The notes beneath the pieces are model-generated. The model did not search any database. It was not told the origin of the DNA and saw nothing but the letters and a program-made list of their open reading frames with translations. Made by a program: the position numbers and the translations under genes. Shown here piece after piece: positions 1 to 40,028 of a stretch of 64,000 nt of DNA. Source of the stretch: a virus. The DNA is taken from IMG/VR virus record IMGVR_UViG_3300009165_000006. One strand, written 5' to 3'. How positions within the stretch are numbered: position 1 is the first letter of the stretch; each line of letters starts with the position of its first letter.

Positions 1-1572
1 AAGATCAACTTCAGGAAGGGCAGGATTCGACGGTCTTACACAGCTCTCTATGCGAAGAGGGACTCTCGTAGGGTTAGGCAAGGTAAGCTAGCTCTACCCT
101 CTTACCGTCATCACATGATGCGATTGAACAGTAATGCCGAGAGTGCCATCCTGGCAGTGATTTTCTTCGGTAAGGATTGGGTAGTGTTCGATCTTCGGGG
201 TCTACTTCGAAACGTTCGATGGCGTAACTTGTTTGTTGATGGGTCAACCCCCAGCACCTTGCTCGGCATGTTCGGGGATCCAGTGATTGACCCCAAGCGT
301 GGAGTTGTGGCCTTCTGCTACAAGGAGCAGATAGTCCCAGTTGTTTCGAAGTCGATCACGAAGATGGTCAAAGCACCGGAGTTATTGAACAAGCTCTACC
401 TAAAAAGTGAGGATCCCTTAGTTCTAGTGGCTATAGATCTAGGTCAAACTAACCCTGTGGGGGTTGGAGTCTATCGAGTGATGAATGCTAGCCTCGACTA
501 TGAGGTTGTTACTCGGTTCGCCTTGGAGTCGGAACTACTCCGTGAAATTGAGTCCTACCGACAGAGAACGAATGCATTCGAGGCTCAGATCAGAGCTGAG
601 ACTTTTGATGCAATGACTTCAGAAGAACAAGAGGAGATTACCCGGGTTAGGGCGTTCTCAGCATCGAAGGCGAAGGAGAATGTGTGCCATCGATTCGGAA
701 TGCCTGTTGATGCCGTGGATTGGGCTACAATGGGATCAAATACCATTCACATAGCCAAATGGGTGATGCGTCACGGTGACCCAAGTTTAGTTGAGGTGCT
801 CGAGTACAGAAAAGACAACGAGATCAAGCTAGATAAGAATGGGGTACCCAAGAAAGTCAAGTTGACGGACAAGAGGATTGCCAACCTGACCAGTATTAGA
901 TTGAGGTTCTCCCAAGAGACCAGCAAGCATTACAACGATACGATGTGGGAGCTGAGACGTAAGCATCCGGTCTACCAGAAGTTGTCCAAGAGCAAGGCAG
1001 ACTTCTCTCGTCGAGTGGTGAACTCCATTATTAGGAGGGTCAATCACCTAGTTCCACGAGCGAGGATTGTATTTATCATCGAGGATCTGAAGAACCTCGG
1101 CAAAGTGTTTCATGGAAGTGGAAAACGCGAGCTCGGTTGGGATTCCTACTTTGAACCAAAGAGTGAAAACCGATGGTTCATCCAGGTGCTTCATAAGGCT
1201 TTCAGCGAGACTGGTAAGCATAAGGGGTACTACATCATAGAGTGTTGGCCAAACTGGACTAGCTGCACATGCCCTAAGTGCAGTTGCTGTGACTCTGAGA
1301 ATCGCCATGGTGAGGTATTCCGGTGCTTAGCCTGCGGATATACTTGCAATACGGATTTTGGTACAGCCCCAGACAACCTAGTCAAAATTGCTACTACAGG
1401 TAAGGGTCTGCCCGGGCCGAAAAAGAGATGCAAAGGGTCCAGTAAGGGGAAAAACCCTAAGATCGCTCGATCGAGCGAAACCGGTGTATCTGTTACCGAA
1501 TCAGGTGCACCAAAGGTCAAAAAGAGTAGCCCAACTCAAACGAGTCAGAGCTCCTCGCAATCTGCGCCCTAA
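1..1572 (+). CDS. cas12j: Cas12j (CasPhi)-like RNA-guided nuclease, 5'-truncated by window edge
   Basis: Frame is open from nt 1. Colinear with CasPhi-2 as I recall it: DWVVFDLRGLLRNVRWR, LVAIDLGQTNP (RuvC-I D), IIEDL (RuvC-II E), GSGKRELGWD..ENRWFIQVLHKAFS, CPKC...CLACG..CNTD (Zn ribbon/RuvC-III). CRISPR array starts 33 nt downstream. Confidence 0.9.
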   Translation, partial: KINFRKGRIRRSYTALYAKRDSRRVRQGKLALPSYRHHMMRLNSNAESAILAVIFFGKDWVVFDLRGLLRNVRWRNLFVDGSTPSTLLGMFGDPVIDPKRGVVAFCYKEQIVPVVSKSITKMVKAPELLNKLYLKSEDPLVLVAIDLGQTNPVGVGVYRVMNASLDYEVVTRFALESELLREIESYRQRTNAFEAQIRAETFDAMTSEEQEEITRVRAFSASKAKENVCHRFGMPVDAVDWATMGSNTIHIAKWVMRHGDPSLVEVLEYRKDNEIKLDKNGVPKKVKLTDKRIANLTSIRLRFSQETSKHYNDTMWELRRKHPVYQKLSKSKADFSRRVVNSIIRRVNHLVPRARIVFIIEDLKNLGKVFHGSGKRELGWDSYFEPKSENRWFIQVLHKAFSETGKHKGYYIIECWPNWTSCTCPKCSCCDSENRHGEVFRCLACGYTCNTDFGTAPDNLVKIATTGKGLPGPKKRCKGSSKGKNPKIARSSETGVSVTESGAPKVKKSSPTQTSQSSSQSAP

Positions 1573-1604
1573 GTCACCTAGATCATTGATAACTCCAGGA
1601 GCTA

Positions 1605-1936
1605 GGATCCAATCCTTTTTGATTGCCCAATTCGTTGGGACTACCCCAAAAAGATCCACGAGGCCCGAGTGATCGACGGATCCAATCCTTTTTGATTGCC
1701 CAATTCGTTGGGACGATGACACTCTGGGTTCCCCAAGCCGGCCACGTTTTCCAAGGATCCAATCCTTTTTGATTGCCCAATTCGTTGGGACTAGGCACCT
1801 TCGGAGAGGTTCGACTGGGCAGCCTTGGATCCAATCCTTTTTGATTGCCCAATTCGTTGGGACATATCGCTTTGTCGGACGCTGAGTTCGAGATGATTAG
1901 GGATCCAACCCTTTTGATTGCCCAATTCGTTGGGAC
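1605..1936 (+). CRISPR. CRISPR array, 5 repeats / 4 spacers, CasPhi-type repeat
   Basis: 37-nt repeat GGATCCAATCCTTTTTGATTGCCCAATTCGTTGGGAC at 1605, 1678, 1755 and 1827. Degenerate 36-nt copy at 1901. Spacers are 36, 40, 35 and 37 nt. The 3' part (GATTGCCC..hairpin CCCAA/TTGGG..GGGAC) resembles the CasPhi-2 repeat end. Same strand as cas12j. Confidence 0.95.
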
Positions 1937-2452
1937 CAGTCTTATTCCTCCTACGAGCATTACACGGTCCTCGAGAACGTGGCCCTCGGTCTGAGGTACC
2001 GAGGGATCCCAAAGAAAGAACGAGAAGCCAAAGCCATGGAGATGATCGTCAAGGTCGGTCTCGAGGGGCATGAGCACAAGTTCGCCAAGTACCCGGACCT
2101 CTCAGGCGGGCAACTCCAACGTGTAGCCATTGCTCGAAGCATCGCCTACGACAGCCGGATCCTCCTAATGGACGAACCCTTTGGAGCCCTTGACCTCGAG
2201 ACTCGTAGCCAGATGCAGGAGATGATCGCTCAATTGTGGTTGAGCATCACCCCTACCATCATCATGGTGACCCATGACATTTCGGAGGCGGTCTACTTGG
2301 GTGATACCATCTATGTGATGGGTAGAAACCCTGGAAACCTCAAGAGGAGTTTCATCTCGCCTTTGCCTCTTGAGCGGAACAAAAGTATGAAACGTAGCCC
2401 TGAATTCACTCGAACTGTTCAAGATATCGAAGACTACATGTCCTCGATATGA
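1937..2452 (+). pseudogene. ABC transporter ATP-binding protein fragment (C-terminal ~170 aa, Walker A missing)
   Basis: In-frame translation starts directly after the last repeat at the Q-loop: QSYSSYEHYTVLENVALGL. Then the signature LSGGQLQRVAIARS, Walker B/D-loop ILLMDEPFGALD and H-loop MVTHD. No N-terminal P-loop region is present. Confidence 0.8.
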
Positions 2453-2484
2453 CTCTTTGCTCACCGAGGAAACGGCAAGACGAT

Positions 2485-3015
2485 TCAGACTTTCCTTCTC
2501 AAGTATTCAATTCGCTCTTGCGTTTTTTGGAGCTCTTCAGGTGAGTACATGTCGAGGTTGACTCTGAGATTGGTTTCGAGAGCTTCCAACTCTCTGCGAG
2601 CCTGGTATTTGGCTTCCGCGGCACGACTTCTGGGTTTAATCAGATACTGGATTTTCCCTTTTAGCTTACGCTTAGCTACGATAGTACCGATAGGGGTTTC
2701 GGTACCAATAGGGATAGATCTAAGAGTAAACGTGGGTCCGAAGTCACTATCGAAACCATGTCCCTCGATTTTGGCGTTTTCCTCTTGGATGAAGCATCCA
2801 TCTTTCCAAGGTTTGTCTGCCTCATCCTTTGGGATCCGCTCTGGTTTGCCAGGTCTACCGCTCTTTGAGAAGTACTGAACCTCTACGGTAGAGTCCAGGT
2901 AGCGCTGTTTAACCTTTTGCGCTTCAGCGTGTTTGTAATCCGACTCCCACTGCTGGTAAACCTTTTTGAGGTTTACCGGGCCTTTTTGGAGTGGACCGGC
3001 TTCGATGGAGATCAA
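2485..3015 (-). CDS. hypothetical protein (start uncertain)
   Basis: 176-aa ORF with TTG start, Lys/Glu-rich, no motif recognised. The upstream in-frame stretch lacks ATG. Lies between the two copies of the 63-nt ABC 3'-end repeat. Confidence 0.5.
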   Translation of the reverse strand: MISIEAGPLQKGPVNLKKVYQQWESDYKHAEAQKVKQRYLDSTVEVQYFSKSGRPGKPERIPKDEADKPWKDGCFIQEENAKIEGHGFDSDFGPTFTLRSIPIGTETPIGTIVAKRKLKGKIQYLIKPRSRAAEAKYQARRELEALETNLRVNLDMYSPEELQKTQERIEYLRRKV

Positions 3016-3211
3016 TCTTTGGATGCTTCCTGGGGCACCCTGTCCGAACTTCCCGTTATCATCAAACTCTGTATTCTCTAACTCCTATGAAAGTGGTCCA
3101 GTACTCACCTTGAGATGGGAGTGACTTAGCCTTGTCGACCAGAGCTTGGATAACTTCGCTTTTCACCTCCTAGTTGTAGTATAAGAACAAAAACTAGGTA
3201 CGTTCAAGGGC

Positions 3212-3274
3212 GAATTCACTCAAACTGTTCAAACCATCGAGGACTATGTGTCCTCGATGTAGTCCTTTGTTCAC
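3212..3274 (+). repeat. Second, diverged copy of the ABC-ATPase 3' end (direct repeat of 2402-2464)
   Basis: GAATTCACTCAAACTGTTCAAACCATCGAGGACTATGTGTCCTCGATGTAG... aligns with 2402-2464. It translates to EFTQTVQTIEDYVSSM*, versus EFTRTVQDIEDYMSSI* for copy 1. Confidence 0.8.
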
Positions 3275-3408
3275 ACATCGGAACGTTATCGAGAGCCACA
3301 GATCTTCAATCCAACTTTCAGTATGCCCCTTAGGCAAATTCTACTTATAATTGTTTCCGTTTGTCCTACTTAGAGGGACGGACACACTATAAGTCTAGAA
3401 AGGAAAGT

Positions 3409-4029
3409 ATGGGACTAGCTCATTTGAACATTTGGGTCCGGAATCGAAACTGTGACCTACTAACCGATATGTGGCGTACTGATTTGGTCATTCAAGCCTG
3501 TACCGGCACGTACCTGGTTGACATTTGGCCGGAGATCTTAAGCCAATTGCAGACTCGGTATCCTACTTACACGATACTGAGTCACTTCTACCAAGGGGCT
3601 CAACGGATCATGATGATGCCGCCGTCAGGGACCTTCTTCAATCACATTGAGGTTGATATCCCTCCTGGCTGTTACAAGGTGTGGACTCGTTGCTGTCACG
3701 GACAGAACGAGGAGACCTCAGTTCAGTTGATCTCTCCACGATGCGGGGAGGAAGCTTGCGTGAATCTGTTGCTGCCGTCTCTCAAGGTATGTGCCCAACA
3801 GATTGTGCACCCGCTCATCGACCATATCGCTGTTCAGGGGGCCTTCCCGGCGGTGGCTGATAGGCTCGTCATTCTGAAAGGGGTGATGTACGCAGGGGAC
3901 ATTGGTCGAGCCCTTTTGCTTGAGCAGTTGCAGTACCGCTTGTCTGAGGCTGTGGCGAAGGGAGACACGGCTCTGCAGGCTCGTGTCAATGCCGTGATAG
4001 CTCTTGCCGATCAGCTTCCAGCTTGCTGA
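3409..4029 (+). CDS. hypothetical protein
   Basis: ORF track 3361..4029. I prefer the ATG at 3409, preceded by AGGAAAG. Cys-rich middle, no family recognised. Confidence 0.6.
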   Translation: MGLAHLNIWVRNRNCDLLTDMWRTDLVIQACTGTYLVDIWPEILSQLQTRYPTYTILSHFYQGAQRIMMMPPSGTFFNHIEVDIPPGCYKVWTRCCHGQNEETSVQLISPRCGEEACVNLLLPSLKVCAQQIVHPLIDHIAVQGAFPAVADRLVILKGVMYAGDIGRALLLEQLQYRLSEAVAKGDTALQARVNAVIALADQLPAC

Positions 4030-4048
4030 TAGTTTGCATCGGAATGTT

Positions 4049-4078
4049 GAAGGGGTCCCTCTGAGTGGGGTCCCCTTC
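4049..4078 (+). terminator. stem-loop downstream of 3409..4029
   Basis: GAAGGGG (4049-4055) pairs with CCCCTTC (4072-4078), 16-nt loop, followed by GCATTT. Weak U-tract. Confidence 0.35.
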
Positions 4079-4281
4079 GCATTTAACACGCTGGCTGTAC
4101 AGTGGTTCGGGACGATATCTCGGGGACTGCGAAGGAGCTACGGGAGTCAGCGGCATCATCTTTGAGCGAGTAGCCTCGATCTCGATCTCGACTGGTCATT
4201 GACTTTACCAGGTCAGAGAAAGCGTGCTACGGTGCGAAGACGTCAAGGGCCGAATATCCTGAACTCACCCTGTAAAACATC

Positions 4282-4569
4282 ATGATCGAAGTACATATTG
4301 ACTTAAACTTATTCGAGATCACTCGAACAGAGGGGGTTCCAGACAACCCTCACGAAAATATCTACTTGGAATTGATCTCTATCCTCTGGAGTGTCAAGGA
4401 ACAAGCTTCAAACTCCTTGGTACTTTTAGCCCTCGGCTCTTACCTGACTCAGAAGTACCCATCAATCCCATGGAAGGTCGTAGCCTTCGTTGACAATGTT
4501 GAGGTGAGTCGACTCGAGTTCCAAAGCTTGGATGAGAGTGCTCCAATCTCCCGCCTAAGATCCGGTTAG
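4282..4569 (+). CDS. hypothetical protein
   Basis: 95-aa ORF, ATG start, no motif recognised. Confidence 0.5.
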   Translation: MIEVHIDLNLFEITRTEGVPDNPHENIYLELISILWSVKEQASNSLVLLALGSYLTQKYPSIPWKVVAFVDNVEVSRLEFQSLDESAPISRLRSG

Positions 4570-4599
4570 GTCTAAACAGATCGGTGTATTTAGACCACT

Positions 4600-5082
4600 A
4601 TGCCAGAAAGTACCATTCCAACTCTCGCAGTACTCGAAGTTGTGGGTTTTGACCAATTCCGTGAGGTAGTAGCCGTCAAGGAATCAGGTTCAAATCGAGT
4701 AAAGTACCTCACCGCTGTGAGTGGTTCTCAGAAGTCATTCGTCGATGTTAGGACTAAGAATGGTCAGATCTTTCGACTTCCAGTAGATCAAGATAGCTAT
4801 GAAGCTATCTGCGAGGATACAATGTCCAACAAAGGTAGTCGTCAAATCAAGAACGTATCTGGGCACCCGCTTCCTAGCTCCTATGCGCGAGATCGAGCTA
4901 AGGAGTATCAAGAGAGGTATGGGTCTCTTGATTCTATCGACTTCAAACGAGCGTGGGCTGAGGCTCAGATGCTCGACTCCACACTACCCCCGAACCCTCC
5001 CAAATATGTCCCTGAGGAAGCTCAGAAGGCCATCACTCTACTGGCTCGGAGAATTCTCAAACTCGAATCGGAGTGGTCATGA
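4600..5082 (+). CDS. hypothetical protein
   Basis: 160-aa ORF, ATG start, protein-like composition. Confidence 0.6.
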   Translation: MPESTIPTLAVLEVVGFDQFREVVAVKESGSNRVKYLTAVSGSQKSFVDVRTKNGQIFRLPVDQDSYEAICEDTMSNKGSRQIKNVSGHPLPSSYARDRAKEYQERYGSLDSIDFKRAWAEAQMLDSTLPPNPPKYVPEEAQKAITLLARRILKLESEWS

Positions 5083-5127
5083 TAGAGACTGCGTGTACTT
5101 GAATGCCAAGTTTGGCCCAGGAAATTC

Positions 5128-5553
5128 ATGCTCCTCTCAAGCCCCCAACGTTTGACTTGGATTTACCTCGTGTTCCAGGATACTCCACCAACATGTGGGG
5201 AGTACGTCGACCCAAAGGGAATCCACTGGCATGTTCGAAACGTGATCCGGGAGCCTGGAGTTGTCCTGCGAGAACCAGCCCCACCGGCATGGTATGTCGA
5301 GATAGCTGCGGACCACCCAGCTTACCAGCTCGAACCCGGATGGGAGCTCCGAAGGTTCTTTAGGCCCGACGAGATTGCTCTTCACCGAGAGCACCTGACG
5401 AACAGCATTCGAAGGATGAGGATCCCAGGATTCGAGTTCGTTGGAGTCTCAGAGGATGAACTCACTCTCGTGGCCAACTTTCAAGGAGTCACTAAGGCTT
5501 CAGGAGTCCCTGATGAGATCGATGGAATGCCGGTTACCATCAATTTCAGGTGA
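5128..5553 (+). CDS. hypothetical protein
   Basis: 141-aa ORF. The competing frame 5103..5363 is Pro/Arg-rich and looks spurious. Confidence 0.5.
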   Translation: MLLSSPQRLTWIYLVFQDTPPTCGEYVDPKGIHWHVRNVIREPGVVLREPAPPAWYVEIAADHPAYQLEPGWELRRFFRPDEIALHREHLTNSIRRMRIPGFEFVGVSEDELTLVANFQGVTKASGVPDEIDGMPVTINFR

Positions 5554-5557
5554 AATC

Positions 5558-5797
5558 ATGAGCTGCAAGTACGAGATAACCATCCTACACCCCAAGTATC
5601 GTGATGATGTAATGGTGTGGAACACAGTATTTAGGTCCGATACATTAACATTGACTGTTCTCAAGCGAAAGATTGATATTGCTCATGAGCTTGGTTTACC
5701 GACGACTGCAGCATATAGTAAAGGTAGTCTAGGTACTGGGAAAATCGTTGAGATGTTTGGTGAGCCTCAGTTCTTCGAGGTGGTAAAGGTTTCCTAG
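5558..5797 (+). CDS. hypothetical protein
   Basis: ATG at 5558, 5 nt after the previous stop (track ORF 5441..5797, internal start MSCKYEITIL). Confidence 0.5.
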   Translation: MSCKYEITILHPKYRDDVMVWNTVFRSDTLTLTVLKRKIDIAHELGLPTTAAYSKGSLGTGKIVEMFGEPQFFEVVKVS

Positions 5798-5825
5798 GTT
5801 ATACAAGCGTCCGGATCTGTCAGCT

Positions 5826-6221
5826 CTACGGTAATACGCTCTGGGGGACTTTAGAGGTATCGTTACGCACCTCCCAGGATACCTCTCCCTCGTCTAACCA
5901 CTTGTAGAAGACCTGGCCTCTTCCGACTTGGTTTCGAACAAGATTTGGCTCACCAAGGTGCACCAAGGCCAAGCAATCATCGGGTACCCCTCTGGACATA
6001 TAGATCTTGGCTCCACGGAAGGTTCCCATGAATCCGATCTTCAGCGAAGCAGGATTCGATTCGGACTCAATCGTGTAGATGTCTCTTCCCCATTTGCGGA
6101 TGTCAGCATATGTACAAGGAGACACCCAGACGTATTCAATCTCAGGAGTTAGCATTCCTCCGAGGATATCAGGAGTTAGCACGTAGGCTCGTTTGACTTC
6201 TTCTCTTTCGATGATGACCAT
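5826..6221 (-). CDS. hypothetical protein
   Basis: 131-aa ORF, ATG start. Confidence 0.6.
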   Translation of the reverse strand: MVIIEREEVKRAYVLTPDILGGMLTPEIEYVWVSPCTYADIRKWGRDIYTIESESNPASLKIGFMGTFRGAKIYMSRGVPDDCLALVHLGEPNLVRNQVGRGQVFYKWLDEGEVSWEVRNDTSKVPQSVLP

Positions 6222-6273
6222 AAGTAGTACCTACACTGATTCAGATGACCCGTTCACAATAATGGCAAGGGCA

Positions 6274-6819
6274 TCACTTCCGTTCTCCAGGTTGACCACA
6301 GACTAAGCACTCATCGGGACATCGATCCTCATCATGATTGTACAAACAACTTCGAGTTGGACTCTTGACGCACTTATGAGTGCCTTCAACTAAGACTGTA
6401 CCTTCAGGCAAACCAAGCTGCTCAGCAGCATACTTCATCAAGTCCGCGTGTACAGATTCGTACCTCGAGAGGGCTTCTTTGAAGTTCTCCCAGGTTCTCC
6501 GACTCTCCCAGTAGACCTCAGGGAGCCGAGATTCTCCCCCCAAGAGGTCGATGGCATAGAGGATCTCTCGGCGAACTCTCTTGTTGATCCTAAGGTTCTG
6601 GCAATCTATTTCGTCCAAAGCCTCAATCAGTGCAGCCTCAGTAGCCCCTACAGGTTTTCTCCCGAGTCGGACAACGGGTATCCCTTTGTCAGCAAAGACT
6701 TTGGCCACGTCCTCACTGATGGTGAATGAGCGGATGACTCGTGGGGCTCCCTCAGGGTACTCTGCACGAAGGCGCCAGTTGGTCTCTTGATTCGGGACTG
6801 GTGGGATGAGGTAGATCAT
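6274..6819 (-). CDS. hypothetical protein with C-terminal Cys cluster
   Basis: Track ORF 6274..6870. ATG at 6819 preferred (MIYLIPP...). C-terminus CPDECLVCG. Confidence 0.55.
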   Translation of the reverse strand: MIYLIPPVPNQETNWRLRAEYPEGAPRVIRSFTISEDVAKVFADKGIPVVRLGRKPVGATEAALIEALDEIDCQNLRINKRVRREILYAIDLLGGESRLPEVYWESRRTWENFKEALSRYESVHADLMKYAAEQLGLPEGTVLVEGTHKCVKSPTRSCLYNHDEDRCPDECLVCGQPGERK

Positions 6820-6910
6820 AAAAGTAGGCTGAGTGCTCAATAACCCTTGGCACCAGAGAGCATACACCAAGAACTTGCTGTTTCCTAGTCATTCAAGTAC
6901 ATTCCGGGGC

Positions 6911-7297
6911 ATGCCAGAATTCAGTGCCGGAGATATTGTTCGAGTAGTCCGTCAGCCAGAGCACCTGATTGTTCAGGTCGTGGGTAAAGTCGGGTTCCTT
7001 ACTAGCTTGACCGCAACCCATGCTGAGTTTACAGGTTTGAATTTAGATGGGTCCTACTCAGGGGGCATTACAACCCAACTTGATTGCCTGGAGCCTGAGA
7101 CCTCCCCTCAGTGGGTTGAAGCCAAAAGGCTTCGAGATGAGGCTTTCAAAAAGACCATAGCCGAGAGTATAGCTCGTGCTGAAAGATACAATGCCAGGAT
7201 GTTCGAACTGTCGGTCAAGTACGGAATCTCGGTGGAGCATGTGAAGGCATTGTTTTCTGACCTAACGTACCTCAATCGTCAGGGTTGGTGGCCGTAA
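6911..7297 (+). CDS. hypothetical protein
   Basis: Track ORF 6833..7297. ATG at 6911 (MPEFSAGDIV...). Confidence 0.55.
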   Translation: MPEFSAGDIVRVVRQPEHLIVQVVGKVGFLTSLTATHAEFTGLNLDGSYSGGITTQLDCLEPETSPQWVEAKRLRDEAFKKTIAESIARAERYNARMFELSVKYGISVEHVKALFSDLTYLNRQGWWP

Positions 7298-7392
7298 GTT
7301 CAGATTTTCAGTTGAACATCAGACCGCTTGTACGTAATAGGAGTTGGCCTGACCAGGTTTTGAGCAAAGCTCAGTCATTCGAGGAGAAGAGT

Positions 7393-7737
7393 ATGAGGAA
7401 TCGAGTATCGCGTGGGTTTACCGTTATAGAGGTGATCATCTGCGTGGCTCTGCTTGGGGTTTTCGCGGTCTTAATTGGGATGCAAGTCATCACGTGGTCA
7501 TCATCTCAGGGCTTGGCCGAAGAAGAAGCCCGAAACTACGCCGCGAAGATGGATAGGACTCTCAAGGGCGTCTCCTGTATGAACCGTGACATAGACGGGG
7601 ATGGTTACGTCTCGTGTACTCTCAACGTGGTCGAGAAAGACGGCTCCCTCTCCCGGGTTCCGATCGAATGCGCGGCCAAATGGACCTACAACAACGAAGG
7701 TTGCAAGGAAGCCTTCGTGAATGTGCTACGAAAGTAA
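7393..7737 (+). CDS. prepilin-type N-terminal cleavage/methylation domain protein (type IV pilin / pseudopilin-like)
   Basis: ATG at 7393 after GAGGAGAAGAGT. N-terminus MRNRVSRG/FTVIEVIICVALLGVFAVLIGM matches the class III signal (G|FT.IE plus hydrophobic helix). Confidence 0.65.
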   Translation: MRNRVSRGFTVIEVIICVALLGVFAVLIGMQVITWSSSQGLAEEEARNYAAKMDRTLKGVSCMNRDIDGDGYVSCTLNVVEKDGSLSRVPIECAAKWTYNNEGCKEAFVNVLRK

Positions 7738-7740
7738 CCC

Positions 7741-8190
7741 ATGGTCGTCAAGTTGGGTTCGGAAAGTGGGTTTGACCTCATCCAAGTACCGGTTTCACGT
7801 CTTTCTGAGATGTGTGACGTTACTCACGGGATAACCCCATGGGGTTATCCGATAAACCCCGAAGAGATTCGGGAAGCTGTAAGTGCCGGTCGAGTAGCGC
7901 CTAAACCCAGAAGGGGATTCCCCGGGTGGCCTACAGAGAGGAAGCGGCAGTATCACATCAAACGCGTGGCCTACTTGGTAATGAACGGATGGTATGATCC
8001 GATTGAGATCGACGTAGGGGTACCAAGCCTGAATTGTTACATTGACTGGCCTATCGTGGACGGAAATCACAGGTTCTATGCGTCTATCGTCCGAGAAGAT
8101 CCTTTCATTCTAGCGGTAATCAGCGGTGAGCTTGACTATGCTGAGGAGGTTCTTGGAGTTAAGTCAAGGGCGACATTGTCGCCCTTGTAG
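7741..8190 (+). CDS. ParB N-terminal/sulfiredoxin-fold nuclease-like protein
   Basis: 149-aa ORF containing WPIVDGNHRFYA (DG.HR motif typical of ParB-like nuclease domains). Confidence 0.45.
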   Translation: MVVKLGSESGFDLIQVPVSRLSEMCDVTHGITPWGYPINPEEIREAVSAGRVAPKPRRGFPGWPTERKRQYHIKRVAYLVMNGWYDPIEIDVGVPSLNCYIDWPIVDGNHRFYASIVREDPFILAVISGELDYAEEVLGVKSRATLSPL

Positions 8191-8272
8191 GTCCCTCATG
8201 CTCTAGGACGGTCGGACTTAAGTTCAAACTTCGATATTTATTGGCATCCCAGTTGAGTTTTGAGTAGGCTTA

Positions 8273-8282
8273 CGCGTAATAC
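8273..8282 (+). promoter_or_regulatory. CGCGTAATAC start-proximal motif
   Basis: CGCGTAATAC, then a 5-nt spacer (TGGGC), then the ATG at 8288. Member of the TGCGTAATA(G/C) motif family. Confidence 0.45.
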
Positions 8283-8287
8283 TGGGC

Positions 8288-9223
8288 ATGGCAAGCAACA
8301 TCAACTACAAGCAACTTCGGGATGGCACGTGGGGAGTTCAGGGGCGCAATCTTGTGACAGGCCGGACCGTGACGGTCACGAAGAAATCTGGTGAGACCAA
8401 GCAAGAAATAGTGGGAGAGATTGTTTGGAAAGGTACTGACGGCTTCTGCTACGCTAGAATTGCCGAACAGGGTGTTTCCTCTAAGTCTTCGACCCGTAGC
8501 AGCTCTACTCGAGGTAGTTCTACTCGTACCACTTCTACCCGGCGAAGCAGCCGGAAAAGCGGTAAGAAAGAGGGCGCCCAAGAGGGCAAATACTCATCAT
8601 CCCGCGAGGGCGATACGGGGGACGAGATCGGGAGAGTCTGCTTCCTCCGTGCGGGTGGAAACCGCATTCCAGTTGTTGTAGTGGGGTGGCAGACGGGCTA
8701 CTGTAGTGAAGATGGTCTCTCCTTTGGGTTACCAATGGATGATGGGTACTACACGGTTTCGTATTACAGAGACGCAACCGAGGAAGAGGCTACTGCACTT
8801 GCCTCCAAGGAAGCTGCTGCGAAGGCTGCGAAGGACTCAGCGGCCCAACAGGCCAAGGATGCTCGGATGGCAGCGGAGACGGCTGCTCGGGCACCTCTCG
8901 CAGGCCTTACGCGAAGTGATAGCTTGAGCACCCCTGCAGGTACCAAGACCTCGGTTGGTACCTACAAGAGTGAGCACGGGTGGGACATTAGCATCACCCG
9001 GGTCGAGATGGGTGATGCTAATGTGGTCTACATCGAGAGTGCCTACGGCTTCGACGACAGCCGAGAGTACCTCTGGGGCACTCCCGAGGTTCTTGCCACC
9101 CTCTACGAAGCCAGACTTGCTGAGCGTTCAATCAGCAAAGAAGAGGCTCAAGAGTACTTGTCCAAGTACTCGGGTTGCTATGGAGCAGACATCTACAAGT
9201 ACGTAGTCGCGCGAGGTGAGTGA
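8288..9223 (+). CDS. hypothetical protein with Ser/Thr/Arg-rich linker
   Basis: 311-aa ORF. Low-complexity SSTRSSSTRGSSTRTTSTRRSSRKS segment between two globular-looking halves. Confidence 0.7.
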   Translation: MASNINYKQLRDGTWGVQGRNLVTGRTVTVTKKSGETKQEIVGEIVWKGTDGFCYARIAEQGVSSKSSTRSSSTRGSSTRTTSTRRSSRKSGKKEGAQEGKYSSSREGDTGDEIGRVCFLRAGGNRIPVVVVGWQTGYCSEDGLSFGLPMDDGYYTVSYYRDATEEEATALASKEAAAKAAKDSAAQQAKDARMAAETAARAPLAGLTRSDSLSTPAGTKTSVGTYKSEHGWDISITRVEMGDANVVYIESAYGFDDSREYLWGTPEVLATLYEARLAERSISKEEAQEYLSKYSGCYGADIYKYVVARGE

Positions 9224-9275
9224 GAAGCTGCTCGATGCCTTGACTCCGCCCAGCACAACGGTGTAGCTGACTTCC

Positions 9276-9740
9276 ATGAAATCCACTGATCTTCTGAAGT
9301 TGGCTTGGAGCAAGATCGATCGACCTCATTCGATGTGTCCTGACATCGAGATTGGCTACGTTCGACGGGTGCTGGGTGAGGTAATGGCGGCCGAGATCAA
9401 GGACCGCGAGATCCTCGCCGAGGAATCCTATCGGTGGGTTTTTGGTCAACTCCTCGTGAGCCCCATGTCCCAGAGTAGTTTGGAGGATGATTGGTACGAG
9501 ACCAATCGAGTGTATCGGGAATGCATTCAACCACCCAACGACAATTACGAGGACGAGGGGTATCAGAAGGCCCTCAGCGACCAGTTCGAGGCTGAGGATC
9601 GGGAGAAGGAGCAACGGGCTGAGGAGGTCTCTGAAGCCCTCAGGTACCTCCTCACACGTGGACTAGTGGGTAGAGATCACGAAAGATACTTCGGCGATCC
9701 GGCAGCCTACCAGATGATGGTCAAGATGTCCTCGGTGTAG
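9276..9740 (+). CDS. hypothetical protein
   Basis: 154-aa acidic ORF. The antisense 9132..9614 ORF looks like a shadow. Confidence 0.6.
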   Translation: MKSTDLLKLAWSKIDRPHSMCPDIEIGYVRRVLGEVMAAEIKDREILAEESYRWVFGQLLVSPMSQSSLEDDWYETNRVYRECIQPPNDNYEDEGYQKALSDQFEAEDREKEQRAEEVSEALRYLLTRGLVGRDHERYFGDPAAYQMMVKMSSV

Positions 9741-9750
9741 CTAACTCGAT

Positions 9751-10338
9751 ATGAAGACCTATCGAGTTGAGTTATCTTCAGATGAAGGGCCTATTCGAAT
9801 TGAGTTACTAATTCGAGATTCGAATTCTACCCTTGAGCCACCTATCAGGAGATGCTTGATACTGAAGGCAAATGGGGTACCCGCATTGGAATACTGTGAC
9901 CAATTACAAGCTGGGGAGCAGCCCAACAGTTTTCGAGTGTTACTTACCCCTAACCCCATCGACTTGACTATGACCGTCGAGGACGAGGTGCTTGAATCCC
10001 AGGACCCCGTTGTCATAGATGGGCTTTATGGTAGGCGTGCGAGAATTAGTGGGGGAATACCTGCTGTTAGAAGAACTCGTGAGGAGTTTCTGGCCTCAAT
10101 GAGCGACGAGTATCGAGAGGCATACCTTACTAAAATTGCACAGAAAAGAGCTCAATATGTAAACCTTGAGGGTCAGTCCCTTTATCGAGTTAACTTAAAC
10201 GAGCTATGGTCCATTCCGGAAGGGATTCCAAGACCCCTTGACTCAAAGTTATTATTGGTTGCTCCGGCTGAGCTACCTCCAGTTGAAGATGGGCCTATCG
10301 TAGTCGAATTTGAATCATGGGAGGGTTCCGATGATTAA
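9751..10338 (+). CDS. hypothetical protein
   Basis: 195-aa ORF, ATG start. Confidence 0.6.
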   Translation: MKTYRVELSSDEGPIRIELLIRDSNSTLEPPIRRCLILKANGVPALEYCDQLQAGEQPNSFRVLLTPNPIDLTMTVEDEVLESQDPVVIDGLYGRRARISGGIPAVRRTREEFLASMSDEYREAYLTKIAQKRAQYVNLEGQSLYRVNLNELWSIPEGIPRPLDSKLLLVAPAELPPVEDGPIVVEFESWEGSDD

Positions 10339-10468
10339 CGGACAAGGCACGGGACTACGCCCCGAAACAGGGCCAATGTGTTTCGAAAGCGATTGGCGTG
10401 GAGTGTTCATCCGCGGGGACAACGCCTTTGGTGTAGCAAATACCCATGGCAAAAGAAGCTTCCTCTGA
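10331..10468 (+). CDS. small hypothetical protein (45 aa)
   Basis: ATG at 10331 overlaps the end of the previous gene (GATGATTAA). MINGQGTGLRPETGPMCFESDWRGVFIRGDNAFG... looks protein-like. Below the track length cut-off. Confidence 0.3.
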   Translation: MINGQGTGLRPETGPMCFESDWRGVFIRGDNAFGVANTHGKRSFL

Positions 10469-10661
10469 ATCCCTTGGGCACGGCAAAGTAGTCAGGGCGT
10501 CGGACAAGGCCCTGCAGATTGAGCTATCCGACATTGGTGAGACCAAGTGGATCCCACGTTCTATTATCCATGACGACTCCGAAGTCTACGATGATGGCGA
10601 GAACAAGGAGGGGGAAGTAGTGGTCAAGCAATGGTGGGCTGTGCAGGAAGGATTGGTCTGA
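10446..10661 (+). CDS. hypothetical protein
   Basis: 71-aa ORF, ATG start. Confidence 0.45.
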   Translation: MAKEASSESLGHGKVVRASDKALQIELSDIGETKWIPRSIIHDDSEVYDDGENKEGEVVVKQWWAVQEGLV

Positions 10662-10699
10662 TGTTGACTATTACCTTCGTGCAGGTGTAGGTTTTTGCT

Positions 10700-10933
10700 A
10701 TGGCTACGCACGAAGAAGAACTCAGGAAGATCGTCGACAACATCGAACTACTCGAGGCCGAGCAAGAGTCCAACACTGAGGAGATGCAGCGAATCGTCCC
10801 TTTGGAGGGCCGTGACAAACGCTTGACGTACCTCAACAAGAGGAATGTGCACATCGAGAACGGCCTCAAGGAATTACACGAGAAGCGTAAGAGCAAGATC
10901 GAAGTTATCGAATGGGAACATCGAACTGGTTAA
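10700..10933 (+). CDS. hypothetical coiled-coil protein
   Basis: 77-aa Glu/Lys-rich ORF. Confidence 0.5.
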   Translation: MATHEEELRKIVDNIELLEAEQESNTEEMQRIVPLEGRDKRLTYLNKRNVHIENGLKELHEKRKSKIEVIEWEHRTG

Positions 10934-11193
10934 GTAACAGACCACCCGCGCTCGAGCGATCGTAGAACCCGGCGAACAGCCCGATCGGCTCCGACAAATT
11001 GGTCCGATCGGAACTTGAGGTTCGGGTGAAGTTCGTGCTCTGAGGTGAAGAACGGATTGCTCGCCCCATCCTGGAAGTACTCAGCGAACCACTCGGTGGT
11101 ATAGCTGTAAGAAAGGGTGGCTCGGTAAGGTGGTATCGAGTATTCCCATGTGTTGTCGGGCTTCAAGTCCCGGGCGATGGCCTTCGGTCTCAT
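10930..11193 (-). CDS. hypothetical protein
   Basis: 87-aa ORF. 4-nt overlap with the upstream gene 11190..11411. Confidence 0.5.
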   Translation of the reverse strand: MRPKAIARDLKPDNTWEYSIPPYRATLSYSYTTEWFAEYFQDGASNPFFTSEHELHPNLKFRSDQFVGADRAVRRVLRSLERGWSVT

Positions 11194-11411
11194 GGATCCT
11201 CAACAACCCAAGCTAGAATCTCAGAGGCTGAGATGAAAGAAAATAGTTGACTCTCTGTCTCTAGCAGAACTTTTGGCTTTCCAGTAGAGGCTACTGAACA
11301 GAAACCTAGGGTGTAGACGTCCCATAGGGTACCTAGTTTGCTGATCGTGCCACAGTATGTTCTACAGTGACATTCGCTCTCTTTCCCTTGGACATTAACT
11401 AACGTTGCCAT
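11190..11411 (-). CDS. hypothetical protein
   Basis: 73-aa ORF, ATG start. Confidence 0.4.
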   Translation of the reverse strand: MATLVNVQGKESECHCRTYCGTISKLGTLWDVYTLGFCSVASTGKPKVLLETESQLFSFISASEILAWVVEDP

Positions 11412-11448
11412 GTGTTGCCCTGACTTCGATGGTTTTGTCTCACTTAGC

Positions 11449-11916
11449 TCACGTTTCTACATGAAACCTACGAAGGCCTATGACGAACGTCATACCGCAC
11501 CCCATTTTTCTACCTTGCTCGTACCAACACCCATTCTTTCGAAGAGTTATGATTCTGACCTCACCCTTCGCATCCCGAATGGCCTCGAGCCCCCCATCCT
11601 TTTCTGAGTGAACGACCAGATCTTGTTGAATGATGAGGGTCTTGTAGCTCAAGAATCTAATGATCGTGTACGGATAGTAATCCGTACCCCAATGGAAGGT
11701 CACCCCCATGCCTATTGCCGGCTCTGGGGTCTGTTTTGCCCACTGTGCCACCAAATCGAGAACGGATGTTTCGGTGTTTGGGCTGTCAATTTCTCCAGGC
11801 CCCCTAAGGTAGAGGCGAATTCCATCCAAACTAACCCAACTCACTTTGGTCATCCGTCCATCAACGTTACAATAGACGGTACCTTCGGAGTCGATTGATA
11901 GGCTTTCTGTTGCCAT
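11449..11916 (-). CDS. hypothetical protein
   Basis: 155-aa ORF, ATG start. Confidence 0.6.
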   Translation of the reverse strand: MATESLSIDSEGTVYCNVDGRMTKVSWVSLDGIRLYLRGPGEIDSPNTETSVLDLVAQWAKQTPEPAIGMGVTFHWGTDYYPYTIIRFLSYKTLIIQQDLVVHSEKDGGLEAIRDAKGEVRIITLRKNGCWYEQGRKMGCGMTFVIGLRRFHVET

Positions 11917-11952
11917 ATCGAATATTGCATGCCAAAGGTGGCGAAATCAACC

Positions 11953-12312
11953 CTAAAATGGCTCGGCAGTGGTTAAAATGATGATGCCTTCCAGCACCTG
12001 AGCCTCGGTGAGCTCCCAATCAACTTCTCGAGGGAGTCCAGCGATAACAGCTACCTTGAACTTCTGGTAGACCTCCAGGGCTTTCTCGTCGTCCCTTAGG
12101 ACGTCTGCGCAGATAGCCAGGGCGAGCTGGGCAGGCCCGCTTCCGGAATAGCCACACTCGAAACCGATCGAATGGTTCCGAAGATCGGAGCGTGGATCGA
12201 TCTTGTTTTCGACCTCACCAATTCGGACGAAAACTGACAGGATATCATCCTCATCACGTTCCCCTATGTAGACTTTCATGAGGTTAACCCCCCCTCCACT
12301 TGCAGGTTTCAT
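11953..12312 (-). CDS. hypothetical protein
   Basis: 119-aa ORF. The start is preceded by the TGCGTAATAC motif. Confidence 0.65.
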   Translation of the reverse strand: MKPASGGGVNLMKVYIGERDEDDILSVFVRIGEVENKIDPRSDLRNHSIGFECGYSGSGPAQLALAICADVLRDDEKALEVYQKFKVAVIAGLPREVDWELTEAQVLEGIIILTTAEPF

Positions 12313-12317
12313 ACTCT

Positions 12318-12327
12318 GTATTACGCA
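12318..12327 (-). promoter_or_regulatory. TGCGTAATAC start-proximal motif
   Basis: Minus strand reads TGCGTAATAC AGAGT ATG (ATG at 12312). Confidence 0.45.
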
Positions 12328-12426
12328 CTAGTCACGACAATCTCAATGACTTTTCAAGCTGCCAGTGCTTTTTTGTTGACTGCTAGGGTGATTCGAGTGC
12401 AATGAGGTGAAATCAGGCAGGTTTCT

Positions 12427-13404
12427 ATGGGCTCATTCAATCAAGTTTGCATGCTTTCTGGGATCCCAATCACCTATCGGGATCCGGTACGGGCTATCCT
12501 CGTGACGGAGCATCCCCGGGCTACCCTTGGTACCGCTGCGCGTGGTTACTCCTCGAAATACATCCCGAGGACCTTTCCAATTCGTGGTACTTACAACGAT
12601 TACGGGTCGTTAGAGAACGTCCCAGACGACGTATTCAAGCGTCTGTGGGTCAAGGGATTGCAGGATGACCTAATCGAGCTTTCGCAAGGTGCGAACCCAA
12701 GAGATGAAGCTGTCACGAAAGACTTGGACTTCGATGACTTGTGGGTGGCTATTTTGCAAGAAAGGCTACTAGTTCCTGGTCACGTTTCGAGGGGAATTGG
12801 CTTTTGTGAGCCGATGCCCTTGGAGGTTGTAGACCATCCGGTTGTTTCGCGACATATACGGAACGTTCGCGTTCAAGTAGCTATGATCCGCGAGGATGTC
12901 TGGCAGTCCATCATGGCTACCCCTCTCAAAACCAGGGCTTTCTTCGAGCTACCTGAGACGTTGGAAGCTCTTCAAGGGGCGGTTCAAGCTTACTGGGGGG
13001 AGTGCTCCACCCTGTTGAACAAGCCCATTAGCAAGTTTGACAAGCAGTTACTTCGAAACACTATTCGTTGTATCCAGCTAGAAGGACCCGTGGCGAACCT
13101 GCCAAGTTATACACTTCGAGACGAATGGGTCTTCGGACTCGGATCGCATTGGCTCATGGCTCTCGAGGGCGAGATTCAAACCCAGGAGTTGAACGACTTC
13201 TACCAAGGCGTAGCCGAGATGGTCTGGTTCATCTGGGTCAACTCCTATCGCAATCGAGAAGGAAGTCTTTGGAAACCCTCCTACGCAGGTGGTGAGGATC
13301 TTCCTTGGAATGACCATCTCCGGTTCCATAAAGACATGGTGCGGATTCTCGAAGGTTTGATTGCCAAGGACAAGGAAGAATACGAAGAATCATGCACACC
13401 ATAA
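12427..13404 (+). CDS. hypothetical protein
   Basis: 325-aa ORF, ATG start. Confidence 0.7.
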   Translation: MGSFNQVCMLSGIPITYRDPVRAILVTEHPRATLGTAARGYSSKYIPRTFPIRGTYNDYGSLENVPDDVFKRLWVKGLQDDLIELSQGANPRDEAVTKDLDFDDLWVAILQERLLVPGHVSRGIGFCEPMPLEVVDHPVVSRHIRNVRVQVAMIREDVWQSIMATPLKTRAFFELPETLEALQGAVQAYWGECSTLLNKPISKFDKQLLRNTIRCIQLEGPVANLPSYTLRDEWVFGLGSHWLMALEGEIQTQELNDFYQGVAEMVWFIWVNSYRNREGSLWKPSYAGGEDLPWNDHLRFHKDMVRILEGLIAKDKEEYEESCTP

Positions 13405-13736
13405 GTCTTGAGCAGGCGCTATCCATATGGTCGGAACTTGAGCAAGCGTATCACAGGCCTGAGACTCATCGTACTATCGAGCTCTACCTGTACCGATTGG
13501 TTACCGGGTCCCCTTCTGCTTATCGAGTTGAACTCATAGAAAGTCCAGGACCTATCGGCGATAACGTTCGGGAAATCTACCGAAAGGCAAATCGAGCTCT
13601 CTATGCTCTATTGAAGCACTTCTGTGACATCAGAGAGGCCTCAATCACTGTGGAGGGCCAAGAGCTTGGACCTTGGTTGGCTGATTCCCTTCAATGTCAC
13701 AGAGTCCAAGTCACTGTGAATCCAAGAAGAAAGTGA
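13392..13736 (+). CDS. hypothetical protein
   Basis: 114-aa ORF overlapping the previous gene by 13 nt. Confidence 0.55.
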   Translation: MHTISLEQALSIWSELEQAYHRPETHRTIELYLYRLVTGSPSAYRVELIESPGPIGDNVREIYRKANRALYALLKHFCDIREASITVEGQELGPWLADSLQCHRVQVTVNPRRK

Positions 13737-13960
13737 TGACTAATAAGCCCGTGATCCAGGTTTCTCACGCTGATCTCGAACGATGGGATGATGGACCTTA
13801 CAAGTCCAAGTGCCCAACCTGCAAGGATGGGATCCTCATGATCTGCCGCGATTCATCTACGTTCAAGCTACAACGTCGAGATCGATGCATCAGTTGTGGT
13901 CAACAATTCAACTACACGGACGCGGAGATCAATGGAGAACGGTTCGAGGGGGACAAGTAA
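13736..13960 (+). CDS. zinc-ribbon protein
   Basis: ATG at 13736 overlaps the previous TGA (GTGATGA). CPTC...CISC four-Cys ribbon. Confidence 0.6.
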   Translation: MTNKPVIQVSHADLERWDDGPYKSKCPTCKDGILMICRDSSTFKLQRRDRCISCGQQFNYTDAEINGERFEGDK

Positions 13961-14104
13961 GCACAAGTAGGTTCTCTGCGGCATTCTGGTTACAAGAACT
14001 CTTGCGGATACTCGCTTGACACGTTGCCTAGATCCTGCTCTCCTTCTTGGTGACTCAATTGTTGAGTTCTAGCCTAGAAGGAATTCGGGGCGGGAAGGAA
14101 CACC

Positions 14105-20529: not shown

Positions 20530-20598
20530 TGAGCTGGTTCGGTGTAATCACCGATAGTGTCTCAGGAGTTCAAAAACCCCAATGGGTTTGATCGGTTT

Positions 20599-20639
20599 GA
20601 TCAACTTTGACTAGCTTTGGAGTCAACTGCTACTACCCT
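20599..20639 (+). repeat. 41-nt element, copy A (second copy at 46707..46747)
   Basis: GATCAACTTTGACTAGCTTTGGAGTCAACTGCTACTACCCT versus GATCAACTTTGATCAGGTTTGGAGTCAACTGCTGCGACCCT: 5 mismatches in 41 nt, counted by eye. Confidence 0.7.
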
Positions 20640-20665: not shown

Positions 20666-20869
20666 ATGACTTTCTCCGAAGCCCTTGTTCACCTCAAAGC
20701 TGGTCGACAGATTAAGCGCAAGGGGAGTGTTGTTTGGCTGCATATCGACAAGTACGGGCACATCCGGGAATTGGACTTTGCCTTTGGATTTCCAGACTCC
20801 ACACTCTGGGTACCAACCGAAGAGGACATCTTAGCCGAGGACTGGGAAATGCGCGAAGTTACCAGCTAA
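20666..20869 (+). CDS. DUF2829-like small protein (Tad2-like fold candidate)
   Basis: MTFSEALVHLKAGRQIKRKG...LWVPTEEDILAEDWEM matches the DUF2829 pattern (M.F.EAl..lk.G..v.R.gW ... p...DllA.DWe). Confidence 0.6.
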   Translation: MTFSEALVHLKAGRQIKRKGSVVWLHIDKYGHIRELDFAFGFPDSTLWVPTEEDILAEDWEMREVTS

Positions 20870-39204: not shown

Positions 39205-39266
39205 AGGGGGAGAGATCCCGAAGGAAGAGTTAGAGAAGGCTGCTGAGGCTGCTTCTATGGCAGCCG

Positions 39267-40016: not shown

Positions 40017-40028
40017 GATGAGGTCGTT

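Follow-up and report, generated by a model that had tools for sequence, protein, structure and literature searches.

Here we describe a CRISPR locus at the start of a 64,000-nucleotide (nt) stretch of viral DNA (IMG/VR record IMGVR_UViG_3300009165_000006), referred to as the window. Positions 1–1936 very probably represent the distal two-thirds of a type V-J locus on a large phage-like genome, comprising the 3′ part of the gene for the compact nuclease Cas12j (CasPhi) and the CRISPR array that follows it. By its sequence, the locus is a new Cas12j orthologue in the usual setting of the family, and it is apparently a genuine, working miniature CRISPR nuclease locus with four guides. At the distal end of the array the last repeat runs directly into a 5′-truncated gene for an ATP-binding cassette (ABC) transporter ATPase. 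We lean towards reading this junction as a recent recombination scar between a former spacer and a protospacer in the ABC gene flanked by a protospacer-adjacent motif (PAM), with repeat and remnant now able to serve as a fifth guide. This PAM-registered fusion and the recurrent solitary repeat handles found close to cas12j genes are testable leads, not settled results.

The Cas12j protein and its catalytic centre

The 3′ part of cas12j (codons 271–793 and the stop codon) occupies positions 1–1572 of the plus strand, as delimited by the open reading frame (ORF) and by protein alignments. Frame 1 is open from the first base of the window to the stop codon at 1570–1572 without any upstream stop, so the gene is cut by the 5′ edge of the window. 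The original prediction, which was made from the letters of the window, had placed a cas12j gene here; its identity stands, but the gene is incomplete in the window. A protein search retrieved the full protein, P0001, of 793 amino acids, with 100% identity to the window-encoded part. The contig carrying P0001 (L005) overlaps exactly with window positions 1–1633 and reaches a further 2,954 nt upstream.

The original prediction had staked its assignment on a global alignment with Cas12j family members, and P0001 aligns end to end with CasPhi-2, CasPhi-3 and Cas12j-SF05. Residues 19–784 matched residues 18–756 of the 763 of CasPhi-2 (7LYS) with E 5.4e-140 in phmmer, and the full-length protein gave E 4.4e-134 with CasPhi-3 (7ODF) and 2.8e-128 with Cas12j-SF05 (8IEW), with residues ~18–784 covered. 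For the window-encoded part alone, the corresponding values were 1.4e-91, 1.5e-90 and 9e-87. P0001 is alike in size class to the three enzymes (793 versus 737–766 amino acids), from which it differs by being only ~39–40% identical, and its length falls within the ~700–800 amino acids typical of these compact nucleases.

Likewise, the RuvC residues that had been called intact from the motifs AIDLG, IEDL and NTD proved to be so. The RuvC-I aspartate D416 lies in AIDLGQ (nt 436–453), the RuvC-II glutamate E631 in IIEDL (nt 1075–1089) and the RuvC-III aspartate D722 in CNTDFG, and a zinc ribbon is present with C694, C697, C712 and C715. In an alignment with homologues of 28–40% identity, the three acidic residues and the four cysteines fall on columns that are invariant in 36 of 36 Cas12j sequences. 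D416, E631 and D722 are the counterparts of the catalytic residues D413, E618 and D708 of Cas12j3 (PMC8298400), and the same D/E/D set and CxxC...CxxC zinc ribbon are found in CasPhi-2 (7LYS, 7LYT, 7M5O), CasPhi-3 and Cas12j-SF05. The C-terminal tail of the protein is basic and serine-rich.

In Cas12j3, K26, K30, Q123 and Q197 are reported to read or unwind the PAM (PMC8298400). The first three are kept in P0001 as K30, K34 and Q131. At the position of Q197, P0001 has Val207, encoded upstream of the window, and 29 of 36 relatives have Gln. The presence of Val for the PAM-reading Gln sets P0001 apart from CasPhi-2, CasPhi-3 and Cas12j-SF05 and might give a different PAM, which would be of some interest for editing tools.

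In total, 41 Cas12j homologues were found, many of them on contigs of 200–570 kb. The nearest relatives of P0001 in the databases show 61% and 48% identity, and the characterised enzymes about 40%. Scanning IMG/VR with the one protein retrieved no Cas12j relative, whereas an alignment-based scan of the same database found relatives; tblastn of the Cas12j protein and megablast of window positions 1–4000 against GenBank phages yielded nothing useful. As a Cas12j orthologue, P0001 adds little beyond one more compact effector.

The CRISPR array and its repeat

A gap of 32 nt (1573–1604, plus strand) separates the cas12j stop codon from the CRISPR array, which a repeat search delimited to positions 1605–1936 of the same strand with five repeats and four spacers. 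These coordinates confirm the original prediction of a four-spacer array with a degenerate distal repeat starting 32 nt after cas12j. Repeats 1–4 (1605–1641, 1678–1714, 1755–1791 and 1827–1863) are identical copies of the 37-nt sequence GGATCCAATCCTTTTTGATTGCCCAATTCGTTGGGAC, and the degenerate repeat 5 (1901–1936, 36 nt) carries one T>C change and one deleted T. The spacers at 1642–1677 (36 nt), 1715–1754 (40 nt), 1792–1826 (35 nt) and 1864–1900 (37 nt) are all unique. Their lengths had been described as unusually variable; they are normal for the family, as the repeat–spacer unit measures 72–77 nt here and 66–80 nt in 13 other Cas12j arrays (n=82, mode 72–74). A 21-nt core of the repeat occurs in the 64 kb at these five places only, with 0 expected by chance, which shows that it is not a generic genomic repeat. 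No second CRISPR array turned up in the 64 kb or the 10 kb past its 3′ end. A search of both window strands that allowed up to 3 mismatches gave no anti-repeat copy of the 21-nt core.

The 3′ 21 nt of the repeat form the handle hairpin of the CRISPR RNA (crRNA), GATTGCCC-AATTCGTT-GGGAC. The predicted fold, located two bases from the 3′ end, combines a 5-bp stem with a 4-nt loop and is the same for the CasPhi-2 repeat, GTCGGAACGCTCAACGATTGCCCCTCACGAGGGGAC (PMC11048056). Both repeats share GATTGCCC...GGGAC and have the layout GATTGC-stem-loop-stem-GAC, and the pattern (G/A)ATTGC-stem-loop-stem-GAC also appears in the arrays of ~15 other Cas12j loci from IMG/VR, JGI metagenomes and NCBI. As in the loci of CasPhi-2, CasPhi-3 and Cas12j-SF05, the array lies directly downstream of the effector gene in the same orientation, and no adaptation genes were seen. 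The present locus differs from these in that its array runs into a truncated ABC gene and that a solitary handle lies upstream of cas12j.

As no separate promoter-like site was found in the 32-nt gap, the array is probably co-transcribed with cas12j. By analogy with the biochemistry of CasPhi-1/2/3, gene and array would be transcribed together and Cas12j would cut the precursor crRNA in its own RuvC site, with no trans-activating crRNA. The nuclease would then keep a handle of ~21 nt together with the guide, find double-stranded DNA bearing a T-rich PAM and cleave it.

The array is joined to a truncated ABC ATPase gene

The original prediction overlooked that the last repeat is fused to a gene. 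Positions 1937–2452 of the plus strand encode, based on Pfam and on homologues, a 5′-truncated NitT/TauT-type ABC transporter ATPase (codons 100–270 and the stop codon). The repeat is joined to codon 100 with no base between; the first 99 codons are gone, and there is no trailer DNA. The remnant comprises the C-terminal 171 residues, covers positions 71–136 of the 137 of the Pfam ABC_tran profile, starts at the codon for the Q-loop Gln and is without the Walker A motif.

Two intact homologues, each on a closely related phage-like contig, define the breakpoint. P0043 (270 amino acids, 94% amino-acid identity) lies on the 293-kb contig L010 (JGI 3300056874). It is the last gene of a complete NitT/TauT-type operon there (L010:6960–10813), after those for the binding protein, the permease and DUF6733. 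P0042 (95% identity) lies on L011, which is syntenic with window positions 1943–12752 and has kept the whole ATPase. Homology between the window and both contigs at the DNA level starts where the repeat has its last base, at 1936/1937. At this point the intact genes read ...ATG ATC TTC|CAG (L010) and ...ATG ATT TTT|CAG (L011), so that the breakpoint is preceded by 5′-TTY, a Cas12j-type PAM. The published Cas12j PAM is TTN (PMC11048056), and TTC substrates appear in PMC8298400; the ABC junction implies TTC or TTT. Within the gene, 3.8–4.4% of the positions are preceded by TTN and 18% by TBN, and we estimate from the unit length that a random deletion endpoint would fall on an exact repeat/spacer boundary about 1 time in 73.

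Three independent assemblies (L001, L002 and L003) from at least two samples contain the junction, which is thus not an assembly artefact. Comparing the remnant with the intact homologues gave ratios of nonsynonymous to synonymous substitution (dN/dS) of 0.05 and 0.02, and the intact genes compared with each other gave 0.04. There is hence no relaxed selection on the remnant, indicating that the truncation is recent relative to the synonymous divergence of 0.6–1.5.

Recombination between spacers and their targets has been documented for bacterial arrays and phages (Varble 2019, Nat Microbiol, as cited in PMC8616872). From what is cited there, it predicts the type of junction seen here, in which a complete repeat is followed by the target from right after the PAM into the rest of the gene. 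The cited work was experimental and involved bacterial type II/III arrays and staphylococcal phages, whereas here the array is phage-borne and of type V-J, the event is read from a single natural scar, and the partner is an ABC gene of related huge phages. We modestly favour such an origin for the junction. One route would be a crossover of the phage's array with the ABC gene that a co-infecting relative carried, which cleavage by Cas12j may have stimulated; alternatively, a self-derived spacer may have recombined with the phage's own ABC gene, in which case the intervening DNA would have been deleted.

Read-through transcription across the junction would produce a crRNA with the guide CAGUCUUAUUCCUCCUACGA..., and we infer that the first ~20 nt of the remnant could act as a hard-wired fifth guide. 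Such a fixed guide would be directed against intact copies of the ABC gene, in which the TTY-preceded sequence is the target, and the phage's own copy would be spared, since the repeat (GAC) stands in front of it. Over its first 20 positions, this pseudo-guide has 3 and 6 differences from the two intact genes. The pseudo-guide 20-mer had no exact match in IMG/VR (viral_contigs), which is weak evidence, as this collection is without the source contig.

We also give real weight, if short of an even chance, to the junction being accidental, an ordinary illegitimate deletion or insertion having taken away the array trailer and, from the transporter operon, its 5′ portion. In that case, the TTY would be coincidental and the Cas12j locus still functional. 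The PAM argument comes from the one junction available, and for the loosest published PAM (TBN) chance agreement amounts to 18%, the share of positions in the gene that are so preceded. Other rearrangement debris lies nearby: a second 3′-end remnant of an ABC ATPase gene, found by DNA identity at 3212–3274 on the plus strand, holds the last 16 codons and downstream sequence. It is 79% identical to 2402–2464 and 88% identical to the end of the L010 gene, lies 810 nt after the first remnant and flanks a minus-strand ORF of 176 amino acids, and it points to more than one rearrangement with ABC genes in this region. Furthermore, the donor spacer is unobserved: no array carrying the ABC sequence (CAGTCTTATTCC..., CAGTCTTATTCCTCC...) as a spacer between two repeats was found in collections that lack the source contig, which makes for weak evidence. 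None of the arrays at hand has a spacer that matches an ABC gene, and the 12-mer matches of spacers S2 and S3 to ABC genes are at chance level. An accident would, however, have to account for a breakpoint that falls exactly where a complete repeat stops (about 1 in 73) and is at the same time TTN-flanked (about 4%), and for a remnant that is free of relaxed selection and so not old, eroded debris.

Several more specific ideas about the region were rejected. The reverse complements of S2 and S3 hold 12-mers encoding LENVA and NLS, which resemble conserved ABC motifs, and a derivation of these spacers from ABC ATPase genes was considered; over their full length they match ABC genes no better than shuffled spacers. 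A simple insertion of the Cas12j locus into the ABC gene would place the 5′ part of that gene upstream of cas12j, where the three ORFs have no ABC domain and the DNA has no homology to the L010 operon. An ancestral adjacency of Cas12j and the ABC operon is not supported either, as both lie more than 10 kb apart in L012, which carries them on one contig. Finally, the microhomology between the 3′ end of the repeat and the ABC gene 8 nt upstream of the breakpoint (TTCGTTGGGA versus TACGTCGGGA in L010) was regarded as a coincidence, since the junction lies elsewhere.

If the junction is a spacer–target recombination scar, a virus-encoded array can in nature reshuffle viral genomes and relocate through homology to its targets, a type of rearrangement so far demonstrated only in laboratory staphylococcal systems, as far as the cited account goes. 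For an array that is otherwise without targets, the scar would also be indirect evidence from in vivo of a TTY PAM and of the target class, a transporter operon carried by related huge phages.

Concerning the transporter itself, we noted that the substrate-binding protein of the L010 operon is fused to an OmpA domain. Distant homologues of the ATPase (60–63%) belong to metagenome-assembled genomes of Bacteroidetes, Sphingobacteriales and Saprospiraceae, which hints at the host phylum.

Solitary handles accompany some cas12j genes

Upstream of the window, L005 carries a solitary handle-only repeat, GATTGCCCAATTCGTTGGGAC (L005:2015–2035), ~920–940 nt before the first window base. It reproduces the 21-nt handle exactly but lacks the repeat's 5′ portion, follows directly after the stop codon of a 104-amino-acid ORF, 109 nt before the cas12j ATG, and is itself followed by AGCAGAGCGCTCC(TTTCC)x4. 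By eye, a weak promoter-like site (TTGAGA-N17-TACAAC) is visible just upstream of the handle, and a 9-bp hairpin spans the cas12j start codon. We found no complementary, PAM-bearing target for a solitary-handle RNA near the cas12j start.

Similar units adjoin cas12j in four other loci (L008, L012, L022 and L024). L008 (IMG/VR UViG_3300048837_000975) has five handle-only repeats upstream of cas12j with spacers of 24–38 nt, and this mini-array (7651–7876) lies behind a near-consensus promoter, TTGACT-N17-TACAAT. L012 has one handle in the 5′ untranslated region (UTR) of cas12j (9960–9981), behind the promoter TTGACA-N17-TATACT and 19 nt before the ATG, so its 'guide' includes the ribosome-binding site. 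In L022 and L024, the handle copies near the cas12j start are antisense. We further observed that the 24-nt spacer 4 of the L008 mini-array has a perfect self-match 273 nt upstream (7555–7582), which is preceded by TTC and lies at the 3′ end of the neighbouring ORF. The downstream array of L012 (12260–12951) also consists of handle-only repeats, with irregular spacing of 42–82 nt, and L012 (11354–11389) and L023 (5062–5084) each have a handle copy inside the cas12j coding sequence.

The closest relative, L006 (Logan SRR18214623, 61% identical), has a degraded cas12j at 5210–6762, in which about residues 20–270 are deleted and the frame is changed. It has no array, only two solitary handles at 6881–6909 and 11115–11143, 4.2 kb apart.

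Standalone repeats have been surveyed for type V-A systems, where ~49–56% of the loci have them, in most cases upstream of cas12a, with a presumed role as regulatory elements or recombination sites (bioRxiv 10.1101/2023.03.03.530964); Cas12j occurs 0 times in the text of that survey. Like the cas12a standalone units and the autoregulatory RNAs of the CreR and tracr-L type (bioRxiv 10.1101/2023.03.03.530964; 10.1101/2023.03.10.532045), the unit described here derives from the repeat, precedes the effector gene at a short distance and is found again in several related loci. Unlike the V-A standalone units and CreR, it is a bare 21-nt 3′ handle, for which no complementary target was found in the promoter region. 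The L005 handle probably gives rise to a crRNA-like RNA or to a 5′-UTR element bound by Cas12j; for its role, autoregulation through binding of Cas12j to its own 5′ UTR is our leading guess. The recurrent handles extend to type V-J what had been surveyed for type I and V-A loci and are testable candidate elements for Cas12j autoregulation.

Genome setting and functional state of the locus

The source contig is at least 102 kb long. Relatives of Cas12j lie on contigs of 126–570 kb, three of which are IMG/VR viral contigs (126–529 kb), and CasPhi-2, CasPhi-3 and Cas12j-SF05 are type V-J effectors of huge 'Biggiephage' genomes, a setting matched by the large phage-like genome of the present locus. 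Genes of the window that are typical of huge phages encode a CCA-adding enzyme, an RNA ligase, a deoxynucleoside monophosphate phosphatase, an ADP-ribosylglycohydrolase and a Tad2-like anti-Thoeris protein.

The original prediction had seen no cas1, cas2 or cas4 downstream of the array, which is borne out by Pfam annotation of the 13 kb downstream and by a PADLOC scan. Among the genes called at 1834–15082, none of the three was found and Pfam shows only ABC_tran, DUF6166 and AttH; no adaptation gene was among the best 25 of 34 families matched by PADLOC in 106 further ORFs. Likewise, the three genes in the 2 kb upstream of cas12j have no relevant domain. Almost all CRISPR systems of huge phages are without adaptation genes, and their arrays are short, the median being six repeats (PMC7162821).

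None of the target searches returned a match. The first 22 nt of each of the four spacers were searched in IMG/VR, the four spacers were compared by blastn with GenBank phages and PLSDB plasmids, and 22-mers of S2 and S3 were searched in GTDB genomes. No self-target was found in the window and the upstream contig, and no match in ~200 kb of fetched related loci. A search for the repeat 21-mer in viral_contigs and metagenome_contigs gave 0 matches, which is weak evidence, as the source contig itself is absent from both. By analogy with other huge phages, the likely targets would be mobile elements that share the host, such as rival phages.

It could be argued that the locus is a decaying relic, with a frozen array that targets nothing and a gene that persists by chance. 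The lack of adaptation genes, the presence of four spacers only, the failure to find targets and the state of the nearest relative, degraded by an internal deletion and without an array, would fit such a view. We nevertheless consider it improbable, since the 793-codon ORF is uninterrupted and keeps all invariant residues of the family, the four repeats are 100% identical, and short arrays without adaptation genes are the norm among phage-encoded CRISPR systems.

A number of observations do weigh against a working Cas12j locus on a phage genome. No phage structural gene was found in the window; 'phage' is assigned from gene content and relatives. With Val207 at the PAM-reading position, the PAM may differ from TTN. 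Scans for consensus promoters and terminators around gene and array were uninformative, with no consensus promoter detected, and the degraded L006 shows that such Cas12j loci do decay. Finally, no protospacer was found for any spacer in the collections searched, and targeting, PAM and activity are attributed by analogy with the family and from the ABC junction.

Taken together with the solitary handles, the junction allows a more far-reaching interpretation, which we put forward as speculation and regard as doubtful. The spacers of Cas12j would be mobile patches of homology, able to recombine with the very targets that they recognise. Through them, a CRISPR cassette could become fused to the genome of a rival phage, creating chimeric huge phages in which the captured stub would persist as a permanent extra guide. 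The bare handles that 5 of ~20 loci have at the promoter or 5′ UTR of cas12j would constitute a family-wide feedback element, and the junction of the repeat with the TTY-flanked ABC sequence would be the first natural scar of its kind in a virus-encoded CRISPR system.

A type IV-B-like Csf module

Three RNA-guided lineages had been proposed to coexist in the window. Cas12j, the transposon-associated nuclease TnpB and a Csf module do lie together in the 64 kb, although the description is generous for the third, which resembles IV-B, a subtype not known to carry out guided interference. The co-occurrence is real but only mildly surprising; Cas12j together with a class 1 system on one phage genome has been reported before, for a type I-C variant and CasPhi (PMC7162821).

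The type IV-like module had been placed at 50292–55701. Its csf genes were confirmed over 51143–54240 of the plus strand. The genes are csf1 (51143–52387; PADLOC Csf1, 2e-13), a cas11-like ORF that overlaps csf1 in another frame and is conserved at the cas11 position in L016 (52068–52607), csf2/cas7 (52607–53590; Csf2, 9e-33) and csf3/cas5 (53587–54240; Csf3, 1.3e-29). The scores against the NCBIfam equivalog models for Csf proteins are far below the curated cut-offs; the proteins are therefore divergent. The overlap between csf1 and the cas11-like ORF amounts to ~320 nt in different frames (52068–52387), and the same is seen in L016 (6754–7764 versus 7499–7996). Directly downstream, on the same strand, lies a gene for a radical S-adenosylmethionine (SAM) enzyme with a B12-binding domain (54241–55701; Radical_SAM_N2 3e-18, Radical_SAM 1e-8). 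Upstream, a plus-strand ORF at 50292–51218 is weakly Cas6-like in its C-terminal half (PADLOC, E 3e-5). Its membership in the module is uncertain because tblastn gave no match in L016 and L017, the two homologous Csf loci with searchable DNA.

Csf2 belongs to a small family, with 30 homologous proteins. Where Csf2 identity is 52% and 40% (L016 and the P0183 locus), a gene for a CysH-like 3′-phosphoadenosine-5′-phosphosulphate reductase follows directly after csf3, and the locus at 36% identity (L017) has two CysH-like genes further downstream. In the window and in the 78%-identical L032 (7532–11096), which belongs to another genome and has a different gene neighbourhood, the CysH slot is occupied by the B12-binding radical SAM gene. 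Apart from the Cas12j array, no CRISPR array for the Csf module was found within ~77 kb.

Type IV-B systems have no array and no Cas6, and they may not recognise targets at all (PMC11656645). The module of the window shares with them the gene order csf1/cas11-like/csf2/csf3 and the absence of an array and of adaptation genes; in contrast to the type IV-B hallmark, its csf3 is followed by a radical SAM gene instead of a CysH-like one. Judged by gene content and order, the module is an array-less IV-B-like variant, and the radical SAM gene in the CysH slot offers a separate lead on type IV-B function. That this complex, 50 kb away, should use the guides of the Cas12j array is highly improbable: the array is the only one in ~77 kb and the weakly Cas6-like ORF precedes the csf genes, but homologous Csf loci have the IV-B layout, which is characteristically without array and Cas6 (PMC11656645), the Cas6-like ORF is not conserved in L016 and L017, and nothing ties the 37-nt repeat to class 1 processing.

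TnpB

The intact TnpB that had been noted at 45399–46643 was confirmed with its motifs, with the correction that the gene lies on the minus strand. The protein of 414 amino acids matches the Pfam families OrfB_IS605 (1e-27), TNB (4e-19) and HTH (helix-turn-helix; 3e-13), and its residues 4–368 align with residues 5–372 of ISDra2 TnpB (8BF8/8EXA; E 3e-68). It has the RuvC motifs GVDLGI, VVEDL and HDRDENAA and a zinc ribbon, and thus shares the HTH domain, the RuvC triad motifs and the zinc ribbon with ISDra2 TnpB (8BF8, 8EXA, 8H1J), the RNA-guided nuclease of an IS200/IS605 element. In contrast to the ISDra2 element, no TnpA gene was found beside tnpB; the neighbouring ORFs have no transposase domain above threshold. 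A search for an omega-RNA near tnpB gave no Rfam match at the gathering threshold. A 49-nt sequence upstream of tnpB (46699–46747) recurs with 84% identity at 20591–20639, just upstream of the Tad2-like gene (20666–20866).

Further features of the window

Among the 106 window ORFs scanned with PADLOC, one protein matches many E1–E2 (ubiquitin-like conjugation) models, with a best E of 3e-17, and single matches were obtained for NsnA (1e-9) and PD-T4-2_A (1.5e-7). An ORF of 850 amino acids at 30749–33301 contains a major-vault-protein shoulder domain (Pfam MVP_shoulder, E 3e-9). Furthermore, positions 39194–41187 hold 3–4 tandem, diverged copies (63–78% identity) of a unit of ~530–560 nt, which extend across several ORFs rich in Ala/Glu repeats.

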